The notes under the pieces were generated by a model that saw nothing but the letters and a program-made list of their open reading frames with translations, ran no database searches and was not told the origin of the DNA. From Candidatus Heimdallarchaeota archaeon (lineage in GTDB: Archaea > Asgardarchaeota > Heimdallarchaeia > JABLTI01): DNA of 32,000 bases. How positions within the stretch are numbered: the stretch's first letter is position 1; the number at the start of each line of letters is the position of its first letter. The translations under genes and the position numbers were made by a program. Below, piece by piece: positions 2,562 to 32,000 of this stretch. The stretch is taken from positions 90,001 to 122,000 of the forward strand of contig JAUWKS010000002.1 of the NCBI GenBank assembly GCA_030614005.1. Reading direction: 5' to 3'.

Positions 2562-3467
2562 TTATCTTATTATGGCATTTTCGTAATCGTTAGGATGGAA
2601 AATTTTTATCACCCTTTTTTCATCAATAAGAGCAATTTTCGCTTGTATGTACTCATAATATTCTTCAGATGTGAACACACTTAGAACTTTCTTGTCAAAG
2701 AAATATTTGTATCCATCAGAAAATGCTTCATGAGCTCTAACTATCATTTCTAAATTGTTCATTTGTAGAAAATTTTCTACAATCTCTAATCCGAAGTTGA
2801 AAATCCCTGCTCCTCTCAAACTATGCTCGTATTGTAAAATTTCATTCTTAGGGTCATTCCATAGGAATTGCTTGATAGTTTCGTTATTTAGCTGCATATC
2901 TCCTTTTGGAAGTTTATCTATATCTTCAAGTAAACAAGGTTTTATTGGAATACCGCCGTGAACATAGAATATTTTTTGTTTTTCATGGACGAGTGTTAAA
3001 GGAAGTTCGCCGAAAGCATAGTTATAAAGTAAATATAAATCCTCATCTGCACCAAATGCTTGAACCTCATCAGCAAAGCCATACCGAGAGTTTACAGTAA
3101 TTACTTCATGATTTCCTCGAAGAAGATGAACGTTTTCTGGTTGTGCAATAATTAGAGCAAAAATTAGATTCAAACAAGCAATTGATTGGGAGCCTCTATC
3201 CACAACGTCGCCAATGAAAATAATATGATCAATTTGCCTATCCTTTTGAAAAATTGAGATGACTTTTTTCAGCATATTGAAATCGCCATGTATGTCCCCT
3301 ACCGCTAATACAGACCCTGTTTTGATTCTCTTACAAAGAGGTTGCTTTTTTAGTAAATAACGGATTTTTGCTATTAGAGTTCTAATGTCGTCTTCTTTTA
3401 GCTTTATTGCATAATCATAATTCTTTAGAATTTTAGTTGACAAAATCTCTGCATTTTTGTTGGACAA
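2562..3467 (-). CDS. PPP-family Ser/Thr protein phosphatase
   Basis: GDIHG, GDVVDRG, LRGNHE, VHGG, LWNDP and RAHE motifs. Confidence 0.92.
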   Translation of the reverse strand: MSNKNAEILSTKILKNYDYAIKLKEDDIRTLIAKIRYLLKKQPLCKRIKTGSVLAVGDIHGDFNMLKKVISIFQKDRQIDHIIFIGDVVDRGSQSIACLNLIFALIIAQPENVHLLRGNHEVITVNSRYGFADEVQAFGADEDLYLLYNYAFGELPLTLVHEKQKIFYVHGGIPIKPCLLEDIDKLPKGDMQLNNETIKQFLWNDPKNEILQYEHSLRGAGIFNFGLEIVENFLQMNNLEMIVRAHEAFSDGYKYFFDKKVLSVFTSEEYYEYIQAKIALIDEKRVIKIFHPNDYENAIIR

Positions 3468-3521
3468 AATACCACAACCATCAGCATTGAAATAGAAATA
3501 ATAAATTTTTTAAAGTAATGG

Positions 3522-4805
3522 TTACTCGCCTTTTAAGTCAGCTGTCTTTAAACGTACATTGCAGCTTGGACAAACGCCACGTACTTTAACAAATTCGAGA
3601 AAGTGTGAATAATGAGCAGGTTTCTTACAATTGGGGCACGTAACATATGCATCCCCTTGACTGATTTGACGTTTACAAACAATACATTTGTCTGATAAGT
3701 CCTCTGCTGCAATAGATTCTCCTTTATATGGCTCTGAAGCAATTTGTGAACCTATTCTGCGCAGAGAATTTACATAACTTTGTCTTTTAATGGGATTATT
3801 TGTTGAATCTGCTGCTTTATCATAATAAGTAATGGCATCAGAGGTACGTTTGCTTTTTTCCAAAACAGAAGCGATTTCTGCATATAAATCAGAAATGGCA
3901 ATCCCAGGGAAACTGGAGGATATTGCATCAATCATATCTTCAGCATCATCTACTCGTCCTTTTGCTGCGTATTCTCTAAAACGATCAAGTAAATCGAATT
4001 TTTCTAAATGTTGTTCTACTCGTAAAGCATCTTTTGGATTATTAGATCCATCATAGGCCTTTACTGCTTTTTTAAATGCCGTTTTAGCAGCTTTAATGCG
4101 ACCTTCTGACAAAGCTATTTCACCCTGACGTTCTTGTGAAACACCAGCTAAATCTTGTCGTCCCACTGAGTTATAAATATCCGCTGCAACTTGTGGTCGC
4201 TCTATAGCTCCATATTCGTGAGCAGCTACTGCAAGGATAGCATCTGCTTCCTCGTCTAAGTTAATGGCTCGGAGAAGATCACCAGCGATGGTATACTTCC
4301 CTCTATTAAAAGCATATTGAGCTAATCTTCTTACAGTACCAGCTCGAAGATTAACGGGTATATTATTTGATACAATATTAATTGCTCGAGAAACGTCATC
4401 TGCATCAATATACATTTTCACAACATCAAAATATGCATTTGCAAGTAAAAAGGAAATTTGAGCTCTCGCGGGATTAGAGCGTTCAAATCGTCTCCCTGTT
4501 TTAATCCAAAAAAATTGAGCCCCTTGTTTTCCCAATTTTTGAACTATCATTGATTCATACATTGGTCTTTTTTCAGGAGGCATTTGAAAGTAGAGGTCAG
4601 CGACTTCAGTTTGTTTATTCTGTTTCAAATACAAGCTTCCAGCAGATTGAAAGTCACCATATTCAAGGTAAGTTTGAATTGTTTTTATTGGTGCTTTCTT
4701 ATCTTTTTTCTTCTTTCGTTTAAGGGAAGCAATAATAATAATCAATAGCGCAATGCCAAATATAATAACAAATATAATCCAAGGGTCCGTTTTTTATCCC
4801 GCCAT
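3522..4805 (-). CDS. Membrane-anchored TPR/alpha-solenoid protein with C-terminal RING-like Zn finger; in-frame TAA at codon 4
   Basis: C-terminus CIVC..CPNC..H..H..CPSC. ATG at 4805 is in frame with the listed ORF (MAG*KTDPWIIFVIIFGIALLIIII) and completes a TM anchor. Confidence 0.7.
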
Positions 4806-4934: not shown

Positions 4935-6752
4935 CTATTTGTGTGCAAGATTAACAAATATTTTGCTCTTTGTTGTTTTATCTACTCTTACAAAACCATA
5001 TCTCTCAAATTGTACTATGGTATCTGGTTTTAATTTTGCAACACCAGCTTCAGCATAACCAGTTTCTATTTTCAAACTATTTTCATTGAATGTATCATCA
5101 ATGAATAAGACACCAGGTACCTTTACCTCAACTACAACAGTTTGTTTAGCATCTGCTACTACCCATTGAATTTTAGGGCCAGGTTTTAATTCTTCACCAA
5201 AATATTTTCCAATGCAATGGATAGGGAATTTCTTCAGAAAAGGTTTCAATTCTTCACTGATTTTCAGAGAATCAATTTTATTGAGATTAATTTTCTTTTT
5301 AGTTAATTTGACATTAAAAAGATCTTTAAGTCTAAATTCATCATTTACTTTCATATTCTCATAATCAGATTTGTCTATTAAGAAAATATTATTTGGTTTA
5401 ATTTTCCTAAAACCTCTCTTAGCATCATCGGGATGTAAAGGCATTTTGCAGATTCTGTTTTCAGGAGCACCCTCAATATGGATAACAATTGGTTCAGAAA
5501 CGAAGAAATAGCGATCAGAAGCAGCATCGATTATTTTCCTATTTGTAGCTGTTAGGAGGCTCCAATCGATATTGGTTGGTTGAGTAGTCATTCCAACTTC
5601 TTTTATAACTTGTTTAATAGCTTCAGGAACAATACCTCTTTTCTTCATTCCTTTAATTGTTACTAAACGAATATCATCCCACCCCTCTACTTTTCCTTCT
5701 TCTACTAAAGGCTTAATTTTTCTCTTGGAAGCAGGGCTGCCTAAAACATTGAATCGCGCATAGTGGAAAATGTTAGGATGGGGTATTAAACCTAATAATT
5801 CACGTATTTTATTTTGCAATTCTATTCTGGTATCAAATTCAGCACTGCGTCCCACATGTGTTATTCCACACAAATTATCCTCAACTGCAACAGCAAAATC
5901 GTAAAGTGGCCATACTGAATATTTCTCTCCTTGGATACAATGATCTCCCTTTCTAATTGCGAATATAGCTGGGTCTCTCATAACTGCATTTTTATTCTCC
6001 ATATCGCCTCTTACACGTAAGACTATTTCACCTTCATTATAATCTCCTGTGAGCATTTTCTTCCAATCGTTCATTGTATCGGCCGAACTTTTCTTAGAGT
6101 GGTTGCAAGATTTCATTTCTCCACGCATTTCTCTCATTTTATCAACGGAACAGGTGCACGTGTATGCATAATTCTTTTCAATAAGTTCAACTGCTTTTTC
6201 GTAAAAAATCGGCATGTCATTTGAAACAATTACTTCTTTAGTTGGATCTAACCCCAACCATTGCAAATCTTCTCGATGAGCATCCATGTATTCTACTCGC
6301 TCTTGTTTTGGATTTGTATCTTCAAATCGCAAAACAAATGTTCCATGATATTTCTTCGCATAGTAATCGGCAAAGAAAGCAGTATAAGCATGACCTAAAT
6401 GCATCTCACCATTTGGTTCGGGGGCATAACGAGTTACTACTTTGCCATCTACTGCATCTTTTAATGGTGGTAACTCTCTTGATCTTTTTTGAGATTCCTT
6501 TTTTGTAAGTAATTCCGGTGCAATTTTAGAAAGACGTTTTTGTTGCTCTTCAACTGAAAGAGCATTGATTGTTGGAATTATTTCTTCAACGAGATCTCTA
6601 ATTTGTTTGGAAAGCTTTCTTAGTTCAACATGAGTAGCCATTATTTTTTGCATAACCGATTTCTCATTTGCAGAACCATCATGGTGAACAGCATTTTCCA
6701 AACCATATTTAGTAATTAAATGTCGAGCAGTTTCAATATCCTTATTTGACAA
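4935..6752 (-). CDS. gltX: Archaeal glutamyl-tRNA synthetase
   Basis: TRYAPEPNG, HLGH (HIGH), LRFEDTNP, WPLYDF, degenerate KMSKS (PASKR), QFERYGF. Confidence 0.96.
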   Translation of the reverse strand: MSNKDIETARHLITKYGLENAVHHDGSANEKSVMQKIMATHVELRKLSKQIRDLVEEIIPTINALSVEEQQKRLSKIAPELLTKKESQKRSRELPPLKDAVDGKVVTRYAPEPNGEMHLGHAYTAFFADYYAKKYHGTFVLRFEDTNPKQERVEYMDAHREDLQWLGLDPTKEVIVSNDMPIFYEKAVELIEKNYAYTCTCSVDKMREMRGEMKSCNHSKKSSADTMNDWKKMLTGDYNEGEIVLRVRGDMENKNAVMRDPAIFAIRKGDHCIQGEKYSVWPLYDFAVAVEDNLCGITHVGRSAEFDTRIELQNKIRELLGLIPHPNIFHYARFNVLGSPASKRKIKPLVEEGKVEGWDDIRLVTIKGMKKRGIVPEAIKQVIKEVGMTTQPTNIDWSLLTATNRKIIDAASDRYFFVSEPIVIHIEGAPENRICKMPLHPDDAKRGFRKIKPNNIFLIDKSDYENMKVNDEFRLKDLFNVKLTKKKINLNKIDSLKISEELKPFLKKFPIHCIGKYFGEELKPGPKIQWVVADAKQTVVVEVKVPGVLFIDDTFNENSLKIETGYAEAGVAKLKPDTIVQFERYGFVRVDKTTKSKIFVNLAHK

Positions 6753-6832
6753 TGGAAGAACACCTAGGATGAATTTTTGTCTAATTATGAATCGTAAACT
6801 TTGTGTAATCCTTTAAATATTTCCTCTCACTA

Positions 6833-6975
6833 GCTGTTTCTATCACCAAACAATTTCTATTTGTTTTTCTACTCTGCCTATGCTTCAAGCCTTCTCTTCT
6901 TCGAGGTGGTTGCCCTCTCCGAGTTAGCATTATCATGATCAGCGAAGGAATGCATCTCAGCATCCATAGCAGTAT
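6833..6975 (-). ncRNA. Predicted structured RNA overlapping the 3' end of the Cas5-HD gene (copy 1)
   Basis: Shares a 15-nt motif (6950-6964) and a 10-nt motif (6833-6842) with 31787-31909, and has similar predicted stems formed by different sequences. Confidence 0.6.
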
Positions 6976-8017
6976 CAAGCTCTTCTCTTTTACTTGCCGA
7001 TAATGAGATATTTCCATTTTCCATTATTAATCTCCCATCATAATAATCATTTATAGCCAAATTGACCATAATTAAGAGATGGTTTCGTAAAGAATTTTTT
7101 CCATAACGCATTGACTCAACTATTCGGTTCAATTCTTTTGAGTGATAGATATGGGTATATAACTTCAAATGATTGTCTTGACTTTCTTCAAGTTCCTTTT
7201 TTAATTTTTGGAAATTAATTGAACCATTTTGTTTATCATAACGATAAGAAGTCATAGATGGTTTTTTTCGGGTGATAGAAGAAGCAAGTTTATCATAATG
7301 CTTCAAAATTGGTAAGAAAGGATTTGTGCTTTCTTCTCCGTTGTGGTGGTTCTTACAGGCTTCTTTAATCTCCTCATCCTCAATATCTATCCGTTGATAG
7401 ATTTTGCTTTGATGTTTCTCGGTATGAACGAAATCGTGAAGCATGAGAGCAATGAGTAATTGTTGTAATTCCTCGGGATAATCTGCTCGTATACCAGCTC
7501 GAATCTTGAGTTTTTTGTAGGGCCAAGTTTGCTTGCAAGCAGTACATCGTTTGAGTTTAGAAACCTTATCGTAGATAACCGTTGTGTTTTTACATTGTGG
7601 ACATTTCTCAGATAAAGGAACAGTTACAGTAGGAAACGTTTTTGTAAAATGCTTAATTTCACATGATTCCCAAATGACTCTACCATGCCCTTCAGCAGTC
7701 TTTGAACCCAAAAATGATTTCTGGAGAAATGGTTCTATTTTCCTCTTTAATTGTTCTTCTGAAAAACCCACGCAACTGATTTTAACAAATCCTCGGAATC
7801 CTCGTAAGACAGTAGGATACTGATTCTTACCATAGACCAATTTACCTACAGTTGTAAAGAGAGGTTTGTTTTCCTTCTTTGGATCTCCGACCACTTTTAC
7901 CAGACACCCATACTTCCAATATGTTGATTGTGAAACAATAACAGGATTGATTATTCGACCTACTAAGGTAATAATTTTTTTTTGTTTTAGTTGTAAGCTT
8001 TCCATTCGTCTAAACAC
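6878..8017 (-). CDS. Cas5-like RAMP fused to Zn ribbon and Cas10-type HD nuclease domain
   Basis: RAMP Gly loop FLGSKTAEGHGRV; CPQC..CTAC; LMLHDFVH, NHH and YDKLASSITR. Overlaps the cas7-like stop; ATG at 8005 is a plausible start. Confidence 0.72.
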   Translation of the reverse strand: MFRRMESLQLKQKKIITLVGRIINPVIVSQSTYWKYGCLVKVVGDPKKENKPLFTTVGKLVYGKNQYPTVLRGFRGFVKISCVGFSEEQLKRKIEPFLQKSFLGSKTAEGHGRVIWESCEIKHFTKTFPTVTVPLSEKCPQCKNTTVIYDKVSKLKRCTACKQTWPYKKLKIRAGIRADYPEELQQLLIALMLHDFVHTEKHQSKIYQRIDIEDEEIKEACKNHHNGEESTNPFLPILKHYDKLASSITRKKPSMTSYRYDKQNGSINFQKLKKELEESQDNHLKLYTHIYHSKELNRIVESMRYGKNSLRNHLLIMVNLAINDYYDGRLIMENGNISLSASKREELDTAMDAEMHSFADHDNANSERATTSKKRRLEA

Positions 8018-9011: not shown

Positions 9012-9200
9012 ATGGTACAAATGGGTGAAGCAAAGAAACCGACTATAAAATTCAAACGAAAAATCGTTGGAAATACGGGTGTAACAAGAATAACAATACC
9101 TAAAGAAATTACAAACGCATTAGACATTCACTTAGGAGAATATTGGGAAGTTTATGCTGAGGATAATGATACGATAATAGTGAAAAGAATCAAAGAATGA
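9012..9200 (+). CDS. AbrB/MazE/SpoVT-family DNA-binding protein
   Basis: RKIVGNTGVTRITIPKEITNALDIHLGEYWEV...IIVKR matches the swapped-hairpin pattern. Confidence 0.85.
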   Translation: MVQMGEAKKPTIKFKRKIVGNTGVTRITIPKEITNALDIHLGEYWEVYAEDNDTIIVKRIKE

Positions 9201-9220
9201 TAATGTTAGGTTCTCAATAG

Positions 9221-9290
9221 TATCCCATGTGGAGCGTCGTGAATCACTGTAAGTGATGAACAGCGACTGCATGAGTCTGCTCCGAGCAAG
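9221..9290. ncRNA. GC-rich structured element downstream of abrB-like gene
   Basis: GGAGC/GCTCC closing stem (9231-9283) with inner hairpins ATCAC-TGTAA-GTGAT and GACT-GCATG-AGTC, in AT-rich intergenic DNA. Confidence 0.4.
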
Positions 9291-9344
9291 AGCATTGGTT
9301 TTCTTCTTTGTAAATATCAGAATTAAAAAAAATCTTTGTTGGCC

Positions 9345-9638
9345 TTAATCTTTCCCAGCGGTTCCGATAATAGTACCACAATTTGGACAATAAATAAGGA
9401 TAGCCTTAGACATCCCTCGTTTTATTGTATCTCGAAGCATATTATGTAATACCGCTGTTTTGAAACCCTCTTTTTCTATCTCAGCAATTTTTTTCAGATG
9501 TTCTCCAATAGAATTCTTTCCATTAAAATCAGTTTTTTCAAGAGCTTGCCTAAGAGTTGATTCATCTGCTACACCTTGATAAGCAAAAATAGTGTTCCCA
9601 CATTCCGGACATTTTGGATCTTTCATAATTCTCACCAA
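9345..9638 (-). CDS. Small split Zn-ribbon protein
   Basis: CPEC at the N-terminus and YCPNCG at the C-terminus. Confidence 0.65.
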   Translation of the reverse strand: MVRIMKDPKCPECGNTIFAYQGVADESTLRQALEKTDFNGKNSIGEHLKKIAEIEKEGFKTAVLHNMLRDTIKRGMSKAILIYCPNCGTIIGTAGKD

Positions 9639-9693
9639 TTTAAATTATAAGGAATAATTAGATTAATTCTCTCTAAAACATTTTCCTTTCCAT

Positions 9694-10595
9694 CTATGGT
9701 ATTAATCCAATGCCCCAACCAATAAAACCGCCTATAACTGACATGATTGCTCCAACAATTATTTGCTTAACAACAGGCTTTTGTCTCACCCACCAATTAA
9801 ATTTGTGAGGAGATGTTACCGCATCTACTCTCTCTTGTACCAGGTCTTTTTTAACTTCATTTAACACATGCTCATCAACTTTAACACTAATGTCTGTAAT
9901 ATTGAGGTTCCTTAAGGCAATGATTGATGCCATTGTAACTAATTGCTGTCTTCTCTAATACTAATATCCCTCAAACATTTAACAGCCATTTCTCCACCTA
10001 TTTGTCCTAAAGCAAAAGTTGCCCAAGCACGTACACGAATATTATTATCATAAACAGCCAGTATTTCAATACGTTTTACAGCTTTTTGTGCAGTTAGATC
10101 TCCTAATGTCCATATAGCTTCTTTTCGTTTTTTCACCCTTAAAGAATCAAGTTGCGAAATTGATTTATCTATACGCTCTTCTTTCTTAATTATTGGTAGT
10201 AGGTTAACATTAAAGAAATTTTGAAAATCATCATATCCTAATTTGTTACTTAAACTATCCAAAGAAATTATAACCATATCTTGAATAGCTTTGTCCGGAT
10301 CATCATCTTTCATTTCAAAAAGTTTGATGAAAAAAGATGTTTGATTTTTCACATCGAGATTGGTGCTTGCCAACACTGTTAAGGCAGTTTTTCGAATATT
10401 TGAATCCTCATTATCTAATCGGTTCAATAATTGATGTATTACCTCATCTTTTTCTTTTTCAGTTAGAGCTTCATTTTTTAATTTCTCGCCCAACATATAT
10501 GTCCCAGAATCTAAACTTGCAAATTCTCCTGCGGCTAAAAGTAATAAAAATCCAAGTCCAACTATTAAAATCGTTTCAAGCACCATAAAATACAC
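9694..10595 (-). CDS. HEAT-repeat membrane protein, split by a frameshift near 9940
   Basis: HEAT repeats (EDSNIRKTALTVL, DNNIRVRAWATFALGQI). Adding one T joins EDSN to LVTMASIIALRNL, a further HEAT repeat. Hydrophobic segments at both ends. Confidence 0.6.
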
Positions 10596-31488: not shown

Positions 31489-31635
31489 GCCCTGATAGTG
31501 TAGTACGGCTCATCATCTTCGGCTGTCAAAGCCAAGAAATGTGCACTGCAAGCTTTTGGCTGCAGAGCCCGATGGACATGAATGTGCAAAGAAAAACGCA
31601 TTCACCATTAACGGGTTCGAATCCCGTTCGGGGCG
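31489..31635 (+). tRNA. tRNA-Asp(GTC) with two BHB introns (31529-31567 and 31578-31610)
   Basis: Acceptor stem GCCCTGA/TCGGGGC, T arm ACGGG-TTCGAAT-CCCGT, anticodon GTC at 31525-31527. Removing both introns gives a 75-nt cloverleaf; no CCA encoded. Confidence 0.93.
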
Positions 31636-31719
31636 CTTTTTCCCCATTTCCCATAATACATAATTATATAATCAAATAGTTATTTTATAAAAAAGTTTTC
31701 TTTGTCAAGATTTTTCTAG

Positions 31720-31766
31720 ATAAAAAATAGAACAGATAAAAAAGGTAAAGACCTAATTTATCTGTT
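31720..31766 (-). terminator. Hairpin plus T-rich tract
   Basis: Perfect 10-bp inverted repeat AACAGATAAA/TTTATCTGTT (31731-31766) with an inner AGGT/ACCT stem, followed on the minus strand by CTATTTTTT. Confidence 0.6.
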
Positions 31767-31909
31767 ATCAGAATCCCATTCGGAGCGCTGTTTCTACTTC
31801 TTAACAGTTTCTTATTACTGTCTTAACTACTAGCTATGTTAACGCTTTTTTCTTTTCGCTACTCATGCTAGTAATTCGATGCATCTCAGCATCTCTGATA
31901 GTGTTAAGA
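31767..31909 (-). ncRNA. Predicted structured RNA, copy 2, with 20-nt variable 3' segment
   Basis: GATGCTGAGATGCAT at 31879-31893 and TAGAAACAGC at 31787-31796, as in copy 1. Confidence 0.6.
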
Positions 31910-32000
31910 TCTTCATCTTCTTCATCTATCGATGTTGAGACATTTCTTACTAGGTATACTTTTTCTCTGCTAATTTTCAACCATTGATTGTAGTAGCTAG
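31834..32000 (-). CDS. 3' end of a probable second Cas5-HD-like paralog (partial; not in the ORF track)
   Basis: My translation SYYNQWLKISREKVYLVRNVSTSIDEEDEDLNTIRDAEMHRITSMSSEKKKALT* aligns with DYYDGRLIMENGNISLSASKREELDTAMDAEMH of 6878-8017. Confidence 0.65.
   Translation of the reverse strand, partial: SYYNQWLKISREKVYLVRNVSTSIDEEDEDLNTIRDAEMHRITSMSSEKKKALT

Follow-up and report, generated by a model that had tools for sequence, protein, structure and literature searches.

The minus-strand reading frame that runs off the end of the window, the whole 32,000-nucleotide stretch analysed here (G000:C9:90001-122000), belongs to a gene module, termed module A, which is very probably one of the seven ARAMP-type paralogues in the genome of a Heimdall-group Asgard archaeon, with an AbrB/MazE-fold gene placed divergently from an operon of a RAMP gene and a RAMP-HD fusion gene. 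The last codons of the fusion gene and the bases that follow its stop codon form a tail element, and this element is likely to be selected at the nucleotide level as a structured RNA, not as a peptide. The module continues in an overlapping stretch, L003 (G000:C9:121001-135000), in which each position equals the window position minus 31000, and its parts are as follows.

L003 834-1838 (window-equivalent 31834-32838), minus strand: Cas5-like RAMP/Cas10-type HD fusion gene encoding 334 amino acids, from the list of open reading frames (ORFs) and its translation
L003 1829-2608, minus strand: Cas7-fold RAMP gene encoding 259 amino acids and sharing 10 bases with the RAMP-HD gene
L003 2709-2885, plus strand (divergent): AbrB/MazE-fold regulator gene encoding 58 amino acids
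Window 31794-31943, minus strand: tail element, a 150-base deletion variant of a 175-base family, spanning codons 299-334 and 40 bases past the stop

Translation of window 31834-32000 on the minus strand gives SYYNQWLKISREKVYLVRNVSTSIDEEDEDLNTIRDAEMHRITSMSSEKKKALT before a TAG stop at 31834-31836, with the C-terminal end NTIRDAEMHRITSMSSEKKKALT. The first-pass annotation of the window had recorded this as a partial frame ending DAEMH...TAG and had taken it for a second copy of a module found elsewhere in the window, leaving its RAMP identity unproven. The frame proved to be the C-terminus of the 334-residue protein, and the three genes that had been predicted for the next 3 kb, cas5-HD, cas7 and abrB, are all present there, which supports the RAMP identity of this copy. 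An unrelated upstream protein, the outcome that had been named as pointing to a stand-alone RNA, was not encountered at module A; at other places the genome does contain two stand-alone tails. The first copy (copy 1) has its RAMP-HD gene at window 6878-8017 on the minus strand, and the distance between the two copies, estimated earlier at ~25 kb, was measured at 24.9 kb. The protein of copy 1 comprises 379 residues and ends in DAEMHSF...RRLEA (in full, DAEMHSFADHDNANSERATTSKKRRLEA before the stop); the 334-residue protein is 40% identical to it (E 2e-81). The 259-residue RAMP is 34% identical to the RAMP of copy 1 (E 2e-30) and matches Pfam RAMPs at 2e-7, and the regulator is recognized by Pfam (1.2e-10) and by the NCBIfam AbrB domain (3e-7).

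Genome-wide, seven modules and nine tail elements were counted, in line with the earlier expectation of multiple diverged copies per genome. The modules are the following.

Module A: the locus at the window end, L003 834-2885, with the RAMP-HD and RAMP genes on the minus strand and abrB on the plus strand
Module B: C122:8270-9915
Module C: C83:1920-3625
Module D: C67:37277-38895
Module E (copy 1): RAMP-HD gene at window 6878-8017, minus strand
Module F: C9:63039-64756
Module G: C9:155525-157236

The paralogues share ~35-70% protein identity, with no near-identical copies. The module is present in 21 of 60 class-level relatives, and homologues with a named source are almost all assigned to Candidatus Heimdallarchaeota or the Asgard group, with a few other bin labels. 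The rationale that had been offered for the copy number, a mobile or multi-guide system, is conjectural: the paralogues are old, no guide-like variable segment was identified, and the evidence for mobility is indirect, consisting of adjacency to tRNA and housekeeping genes and a relic of a tRNA-end duplication. A CRISPR array was sought as exact 18-mers recurring at least three times at 45-100 base spacing, and none was found in the whole 3.6-Mb assembly (90% complete; arrays often fail to assemble).

When the module ends are aligned, conservation begins ~125 bases before the stop codon, continues to ~45 bases after it and then ends abruptly. A covariance model built from 21 module tails (R1) matches window 31794-31943 on the minus strand with 96 bits (E 2.4e-20, whole-genome search) and finds nine tails in the genome, seven at modules and two solo (C94:2258-2430, L050, and C9:140338-140512, L051; 141-153 bits). 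Near the solo tails, no protein-level RAMP or HD remnant was detected. A gap of 4 bases separates the C94 solo tail from the ATG of a downstream S19e-like gene, and the orthologous site in genome G006 retains a partial HD gene. The R1 element occurs in 10 of the 11 genomes searched within the family, with as many as 13 copies in a single genome, and in two of 48 genomes outside it. Rfam searches of L003 1-6000 and window 6600-7200, taken to E up to 1, yielded nothing relevant for either tail. Likewise, no report of an RNA component of ARAMP was found in a literature search that did not cover the primary description of the system, which is reportedly Makarova et al. 2020, CRISPR J 3:156. The claim that this gene end carries the same RNA motifs as copy 1 stands at the level of the family, through the R1 match; the first motif probably meant, AAGAAACTGTT, is the loop and 3' arm of the terminal hairpin P6. 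It fails for the second, probably TAGAAACAGC, which is not conserved in the family and in module A is a degenerate remnant of a ribosome-binding site running into the relic of a tRNA 3' end.

Several comparisons point to selection on nucleotides. Among paralogues D-G the tail is the best-conserved stretch of the module (85-92% against ~70% elsewhere); third-codon-position identity is 84% in the tail and 53% in the gene body, and identical residues are encoded by identical codons in 84% and 56% of cases, respectively. In module A the element starts at codon 299, exactly where the per-residue confidence (pLDDT) of the AlphaFold model falls below 50. The element is located mostly past the stop codon in copy B and in the orthologues of that copy, and copy D, compared with copies E-G, reads a locally shifted frame over similar nucleotides. 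These data bear on the alternative that there is no independent element, and that a conserved C-terminal peptide (the DAEMH motif) together with local gene conversion among paralogues accounts for the similarity. DAEMH is nearly invariant at the protein level, and the conservation among D-G could stem from conversion tracts; however, the peptide is predicted to be disordered, the element reaches 40-45 bases past the stop, and the helices covary across species and not just within one genome, with compensatory pairs that conversion does not explain. This alternative, largely refuted by the element kept untranslated in copy B with its orthologues and in the two solo tails, is almost certainly wrong.

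The helices of the tail family are listed below, with their positions in module A (window coordinates, minus strand) where present.

P1 and P1b: AUCUCA..CAUC with GAUG.UGAGAU, the 3' strand consisting of the DAEMH codons; in module A, P1 is GUCUCA (31936-31941) with UGAGAU (31883-31888) and P1b is CAUC (31931-31934) with GAUG (31890-31893)
P2: short stem beside P1; in module A, GAUAG (31926-31930) with CUAUC (31897-31901)
P3: long bulged helix whose 3' strand holds the stop codon (CAU-A-GGCAGAG); in module A, 31827-31874, UUACUAGC-AUG with CAU-A-GCUAGUAG, the stop codon again in the 3' strand
P4: GAGN...NCUC
P5: CYRAG-AAGG-CUYRG
P6: terminal hairpin with an A-rich loop; in module A, 31803-31822, GACAGU, loop AAUAAGAA, ACUGUU

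RNAalifold on a MAFFT alignment, which places P1, P1b and P2 of module A at 31883-31941, recovered only P1, P2 and P4, and a column-wise helix scan also missed P3 and P6. Over 38 distinct sequences, 93.5% of the cells of P1, P2 and P4 pair, compared with 18-51% in slid controls; both sides change in 9 of 18 pairs, and none of 500 shuffles reaches these values. Because MAFFT misaligned P3 and P6, these two helices were tested by anchored strand extraction. For P3, the cognate strands of 24 distinct variants average -6.0 kcal/mol and permuted strands -2.9 kcal/mol, and for P6 the corresponding values over 30 variants are -4.15 and -1.55 kcal/mol, with 0 of 5000 permutations as low in either case. 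The stem of P6 varies in sequence in nearly every copy with its pairing kept, and stem sequences vary widely (CUCUG/CAGAG, CCCCG/CGGGG, UUCCG/CGGAA, UCCCU/AGGGA). A hammerhead-like reading of the CUGAGAU motif was dropped, as the core does not fit.

The tail of module A is a shortened member of this family. The stretch 31760-31960 has a minimum free energy of -47.6 kcal/mol (z -4.53 against 200 shuffles), and P2 is compensatory, with GAUAG/CUAUC in module A, GGUAG/CUACU in the orthologous locus L053 and GGCA/UGCU in copy 1. P3 is perfect (UUACUAGC/GCUAGUAG), its variable part reaching -8.8 kcal/mol over 7 base pairs, and is closed by the short stem UAGCG/CGUUA around the purine loop AAAAGAAAAAAG. 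P6 reaches -5.4 kcal/mol (z -4.3) and is followed directly by a degenerate Shine-Dalgarno-like stretch, UAAGAAGUAG (31794-31802, minus strand). P4 and the canonical P5 are missing: ~27-32 bases are gone relative to L053, L022 and L052, and the UAGCG/CGUUA stem stands in their place. The deletion is real, and the shortened tail or the tRNA-side arrangement is unchanged in Logan contigs of three studies, of which one run may be the source sample of the genome. We infer that module A is a natural minimal variant that has lost P4 and the canonical P5 and kept the closed P3 stem. Its score of 96 bits is the lowest within the A, B and D-G type, where the other intact modules reach 136-165 bits.

A second Heimdall family supports the existence of an RNA-like tail at the RAMP-HD gene end as an independent parallel. 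Its RAMP-HD homologues are 31-37% identical, comprise ~270-295 residues and have no disordered tail. A different covarying element of ~110 bases follows the stop codon of these genes (L030-L037, L039, L041, L047, L048), composed of an outer helix, a 9-base-pair covarying helix, a 3-base-pair helix closing an invariant AGAAGG loop, and a CCCC/GGGG hairpin. In a plain MAFFT alignment of nine loci, 90.6% of cells pair (25-45% in slid controls), both sides change in 11 of 19 pairs, and the covariation score is 0.665 against 0.214 (0 of 500 shuffles). The model of this element, R2, finds three further loci of its own family and, at E up to 1, no tail of the family of module A; homology of the two elements is therefore unproven and is not claimed. 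Both share the local motif AAGAGAAGGCUUGRA, which, with a layout resembling the shortened P3/purine-loop hairpin of module A, may serve as a lead. The second-family element also persists beside broken copies of the RAMP-HD gene.

The proteins of the module were assigned by structure as well as by sequence. The 334-residue RAMP-HD protein has no profile match in Pfam, NCBIfam or PADLOC. Its AlphaFold model has a pLDDT of 85.9, with residues 299-334 below 50 and thus predicted to be disordered. With the whole model as query, Foldseek stayed above 1e-3 (best match 1.2e-3; the matches were all RAMP proteins), so that the domains had to be compared with VIA-align. Residues 138-301 resemble the HD domain of Csm1/Cas10 (6ifk_A residues 2-233, Z 8.2, root-mean-square deviation 3.8, 148 aligned residues, 22% identity; second match 6mua_A, Z 8.0). 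Among 47 homologues H151, D152, H159, H181, H182, D199 and H270 are invariant, and the HD ligands are H151, D152, H181, H182, D199 and H270. In type III systems an HD domain of the Cas10 kind is a single-stranded DNase. For residues 4-120 the best match is a 302-residue chain of a Csm complex, 9g9a_G (Z 8.2, root-mean-square deviation 2.9, 114 aligned residues), which we take to be Csm4; the type IV effector chains 8rc2_F and 7xfz_B, presumably Csf3, follow at Z 7.3, and Cmr, Cas6 and Cas7 RAMPs lie about 1-2 Z units behind. Palm and cyclase domains were not found in the HD-bearing protein, whose 334 residues are taken up by the RAMP domain, the HD domain and the disordered tail, and there is no other large gene in the module.

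The 259-residue protein is assigned to Csm3 by PADLOC (3e-5), and its model (pLDDT 83.6) retrieves Cas7 subunits of types VII, IV and III from the PDB by Foldseek (best E 1.2e-8, 182 matches at or below 1e-3). A complex of the 259- and 334-residue proteins in contact through the RAMP domain was predicted with an ipSAE interface score of 0.72 (runs 0.72, 0.72 and 0.76; best control 0.00), with inter-run contact agreement of at least 82% and a partner pLDDT of at least 75; of the benchmark sets, 58 of 80 solved complexes but just 2 of 110 mismatched pairs attain the mark applied to this score. The model supports binding of the two proteins to each other through the RAMP domain, but it may mirror likeness and so not count as independent evidence, since Csm3-Csm4 complexes have already been solved.

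From these components a working scheme can be proposed. The operon transcript would run through the tail, which would fold into P1-P3, the purine-loop hairpin and P6 and act as the module's own RNA subunit, the Cas5-like domain holding a hairpin 'handle' and the Cas7-like subunits coating the adjacent RNA. The product would be a ribonucleoprotein with a fixed RNA, by which the HD DNase is positioned or gated, and AbrB would autoregulate the operon. That the module's own proteins bind the tail as an RNA subunit, and with it the explanation as a whole, is tentative and falls slightly short of an even chance. Guidance by base pairing through the tail RNA is distinctly doubtful, the alternative being that the RNA is a scaffold or sensor only.

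A number of points weigh against this scheme. Both the tail RNA and its binding by protein are predictions, and the Z values of 7-8 of the fold matches are middling on VIA-align's own calibration. The alignment behind the statistics for P1, P2 and P4 was fitted to the model, and the shuffle and permutation statistics overstate significance because the sequences are related and not independent. No variable, spacer-like segment was identified in the tail, and the tail of module A, with the lowest score and without P4 and P5, could be decaying. A universal ARAMP RNA subunit is not shown, since the R1 element is essentially a one-family feature (10/11 versus 2/48 genomes) and R2 misses it. Finally, a GGUGAU-like ribosome-binding site, 4-7 bases ahead of a housekeeping gene's ATG, closes about half of the tails, and solo tails persist upstream of housekeeping genes; together these fit a cis role for the neighbouring gene equally well.

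The latter points belong to an alternative in which the tail is a cis-acting mRNA element, that is, a structured 3' untranslated or intercistronic region that stabilises, terminates or processes the transcript and in most copies supplies a ribosome-binding site, perhaps also a promoter or 5' leader, to a downstream housekeeping gene, the module being tolerated for preserving the expression of that gene. An ORF starts within ~25 bases of the tail end in 18 of the 38 distinct tails, and in ~10 of those 18 the ATG lies 4-7 bases past a GGUGAU-, GGAGA- or GGUUA-like motif. By their N-termini, we take the downstream genes to be ABCE1-like, RFC small subunit-like, ribosomal protein S19e-like and EF-2-like. 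At C94 the solo tail still lies upstream of the S19e-like gene after loss of the module, and the ribosome-binding motif is degenerate exactly in the tRNA-facing copies. These data support a cis role for the last 15 bases of the tail. However, in the tRNA-facing orthologues L052, L022 and L053 the ribosome-binding site has decayed and no ORF follows that the tail could serve, yet the whole element is retained at 140-166 bits; P1-P6 are therefore not maintained for a neighbouring gene alone. P1-P5 also sit 60-170 bases upstream of the ribosome-binding site and are far more elaborate than it needs, and the second-family element is likewise tied to the end of a RAMP-HD gene. The function of the tail thus appears to be tied to the module, not to the downstream gene, and a cis-acting element as the full account is rather unlikely, while still a substantial possibility. 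At copy B (G000:C122:9900-10150) and its orthologues L024, L066 and L083, the downstream gene lacks an ATG, GTG or TTG at the spacing expected after GGAGA, and an ATT start is possible; we assume from its N-terminus, KIYYVAEVRDTIRV, that this gene is Rpo7-like.

Beyond the tail of module A lies a tRNA gene, and the junction between the two bears on whether the tail might function as DNA. Its features, in window coordinates, are given below.

31489-31636, plus strand: tRNA-Asp(GTC) gene with intron(s), convergent with the module, called by ARAGORN with introns allowed
31637-31767, no strand: AT-rich insert of ~130 bases between the intact tRNA end and its relic
31768-31788, plus strand: decayed direct copy of the tRNA-Asp 3' end, TCAGAATCCCATTCGGAGCGC against TTCGAATCCCGTTCGGGGCGC in the gene, 21 of 24 positions identical (local alignment, BLAST)

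The module had been described as convergent on, and next to, a tRNA 3' end; the tRNA-Asp gene is real and convergent, but its 3' end lies 197 bases from the stop codon and is not adjacent. In the window, ARAGORN in its default setting called no tRNA and Rfam gave no tRNA match. The other Rfam rows, the tmRNA model on the T-arm and a microRNA family, were at chance level and were discarded. The gene contains at least one long intron and probably a second, with positions after the anticodon loop and before the T arm, the anticodon stem being weak under a one-intron model. The same split tRNA-Asp gene is conserved at the orthologous loci of the closest relatives of module A, namely G010:C17 (L022) and the metagenome contigs L052 and L053. 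At these loci the tail meets the tRNA-Asp 3' end directly, 15-16 bases past P6. In module A this position is occupied by the 21-base relic, and the intact end follows 150 bases further on. The relic arrangement is unchanged in Logan contigs of runs X1 and X3, and run X2 carries a strain variant of the insert with a 12-base deletion. The insert contains a 10-base-pair inverted repeat (AACAGATAAA...TTTATCTGTT, ~31730-31766) and has no significant second copy in the genome; its interpretation as a miniature inverted-repeat transposable element was rejected because no other copy exists. In L046 (1338-1413 and 1418-1589) the module tail ends 4 bases from the 3' end of a convergent tRNA-Gly(TCC) gene. 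The tails in L023 (after 2577) and L060 (after 1676) precede apparent same-strand tRNA 5' ends, which ARAGORN did not call and in which introns are possible.

The abutment of tails on tRNA 3' ends (tRNA-Asp in L022, L052 and L053, the relic in module A, tRNA-Gly(TCC) in L046) could be explained if the tail were a DNA-level terminal recombination or integration site of a mobile cassette, possibly moved by a divergent ARAMP Cas1 or an integrase and inserting at tRNA 3' ends and just upstream of housekeeping genes, with the helices being inverted repeats read as DNA. The 21-base tRNA-Asp-end duplicate flanking the 130-base insert resembles an att site or target-site duplication, conservation stops sharply at the GGUGAUAG end, and the locus itself is rearranged. 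An orphan, intact AbrB/MazE gene (58 amino acids, L003 5281-5457) lies beside a 78-base RAMP 5' fragment that is 88% identical to the RAMP start of module A, and the two resemble the remains of a previous module at this place; compared with L052, the flank is 83% identical and module A 71%. Furthermore, Cas1-like and PD-(D/E)XK proteins encoded at a distance of 7-11 kb have homologues in L054, in a cassette placed immediately after a module. Nevertheless, the paralogues are old, with no near-identical copies marking recent movement; no terminal inverted repeats match the other end of the module, where an 84-base upstream element is found in copies E-G only; and every copy carries the element on the same strand with respect to the operon. 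In addition, some compensatory changes preserve G-U pairs (12 U-G versus 19 C-G at one P1b pair), as would be expected of RNA but not of a duplex DNA site. A DNA site is accordingly judged quite improbable.

The flanking features to which these comparisons refer are the following.

L003 5073-5457 (window-equivalent 36073-36457): region of the orphan AbrB gene and RAMP fragment, beside a YokU/DUF4258 pair
L003 8954-13196: four-gene cassette encoding 261, 674, 241 and 252 amino acids, with a NERD-domain gene next
Window 9187-9316 (C9:99187-99316): 84-base sequence site
C9:65324-65407: 84-base sequence site
C9:157813-157896: 84-base sequence site
C7:20763-20849: 84-base sequence site

Two LAGLIDADG-HTH paralogues (523 and 524 amino acids; L003 3383-4957 and 6789-8360), with 75% nucleotide identity over 864 bases, bracket the YokU-like/DUF4258 pair, and one of them separates the orphan AbrB gene from the live module. 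Within the cassette, the 674-residue protein (L003 9702-11726, on the other strand, 8 kb from the module) has a weak PADLOC Cas1 match (E 5e-4, residues 488-602) and is 38% identical to a protein following a module in L054; it has no Pfam match, and a PDB sequence search gave a chance match only. The 252-residue protein is a PD-(D/E)XK (Cas4-like) protein (L003 12438-13196, Pfam 1.3e-9). The 84-base sequence lies beyond the abrB 3' end. Copies E, F and G and one site on contig C7 share it with 88-94% conservation, and copies A, B, C and D lack it. Around copy 1 (window 2562-4745 and 9345-10595) there are a TPR/SNAP-like protein with a prokaryotic RING finger, a HEAT-repeat protein and a double zinc-ribbon protein, small genes of eukaryote-like or unusual character.

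A joint reading of tail, module and junction can be formulated, which is speculative and has a clear minority of the probability. The tail transcript would be a dedicated, genome-encoded RNA of an array-less class 1 Cas7/Cas5-HD ribonucleoprotein, embedded in the end of the nuclease gene; module A would define its core, consisting of the P3 stem, the AUGA motif and the purine-loop hairpin in a layout like that of the second-family element, and solo tails would be additional RNA genes acting in trans. The divergent Cas1 would have integrated the cassette, or DNA captured beside it, at tRNA 3' ends, with duplications such as the 21-base tRNA-Asp relic as the trace of this event.

ARAMP and HRAMP are the chief CRISPR derivatives lacking a known substitute for the CRISPR RNA (crRNA), and their mechanism has been called enigmatic (PMC8730458). 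A covarying, RNA-like element located on the nuclease gene provides a concrete candidate for a crRNA substitute, testable with three recombinant components, and such an element is present in two archaeal families, in a different version in each. The shortened tail of module A points to parts that are possibly dispensable, the tRNA-facing orthologues separate a module-linked role from a role in the expression of downstream genes, and the junction with its duplicated tRNA end bears on the insertion of cassettes or their neighbours. If the tail were only cis-regulatory, module A would be an ordinary extra copy of a catalogued system.

Among known systems, the omegaRNA or reRNA of IscB and TnpB (OMEGA) resembles the tail by position only, as a structured non-coding RNA encoded across the 3' end of a nuclease gene and shortly past it, in multiple copies per genome and with occasional solos. 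Module A differs in its unrelated proteins, in the absence of transposon ends and in having no identified guide segment at the boundary, and its RNA is a predicted one. The tRNA sites of archaeal integrative elements and casposons share with module A a boundary that falls on the 3' end of a tRNA gene, a short stretch of which is directly duplicated; in module A, however, no integrase or casposase lies between the repeats, ~130 bases are enclosed, and the arrangement is a single instance. The likeness to the type III-A Csm complex, in which Csm3 is the Cas7, Csm4 the Cas5 and Csm1/Cas10 the HD-bearing subunit, is found in the best structural matches of all three domains and in the predicted Cas5-Cas7 contact through the RAMP domain. 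Module A differs from it in lacking Palm/cyclase, Cas11 and Cas6, in having a single Cas7 gene and no source of crRNA, and in carrying the HD domain on the Cas5-like subunit, not on the large one. HRAMP is an array-less Cas5/Cas7 pair with extra nucleases, of unknown function and predicted to be a non-programmable defence (PMC8730458); compared by description only, it is like module A in its array-less Cas5/Cas7 and nuclease and differs in host group and accessory genes.

ARAMP, described as an array-less, type III-derived system of Asgard archaea whose mechanism is unknown, is treated in two reviews (PMC8730458; PMC12669027). In these, the usual nucleases are HNH and PD-(D/E)xK, and an RNA component is not mentioned, whereas the modules described here have a Cas10-type HD domain fused to a Cas5-like RAMP and a structured RNA-like end. 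Most ARAMP loci carry a distinct Cas1, and the neighbourhood of module A contains a putative Cas1-like gene, with a weak Cas1 match, together with a PD-(D/E)XK gene. Module A resembles that class in its Asgard host, its diverged Cas7 and putative Cas5 homologues closest to type III, its associated nuclease and the absence of an array, and the seven modules fit within it.

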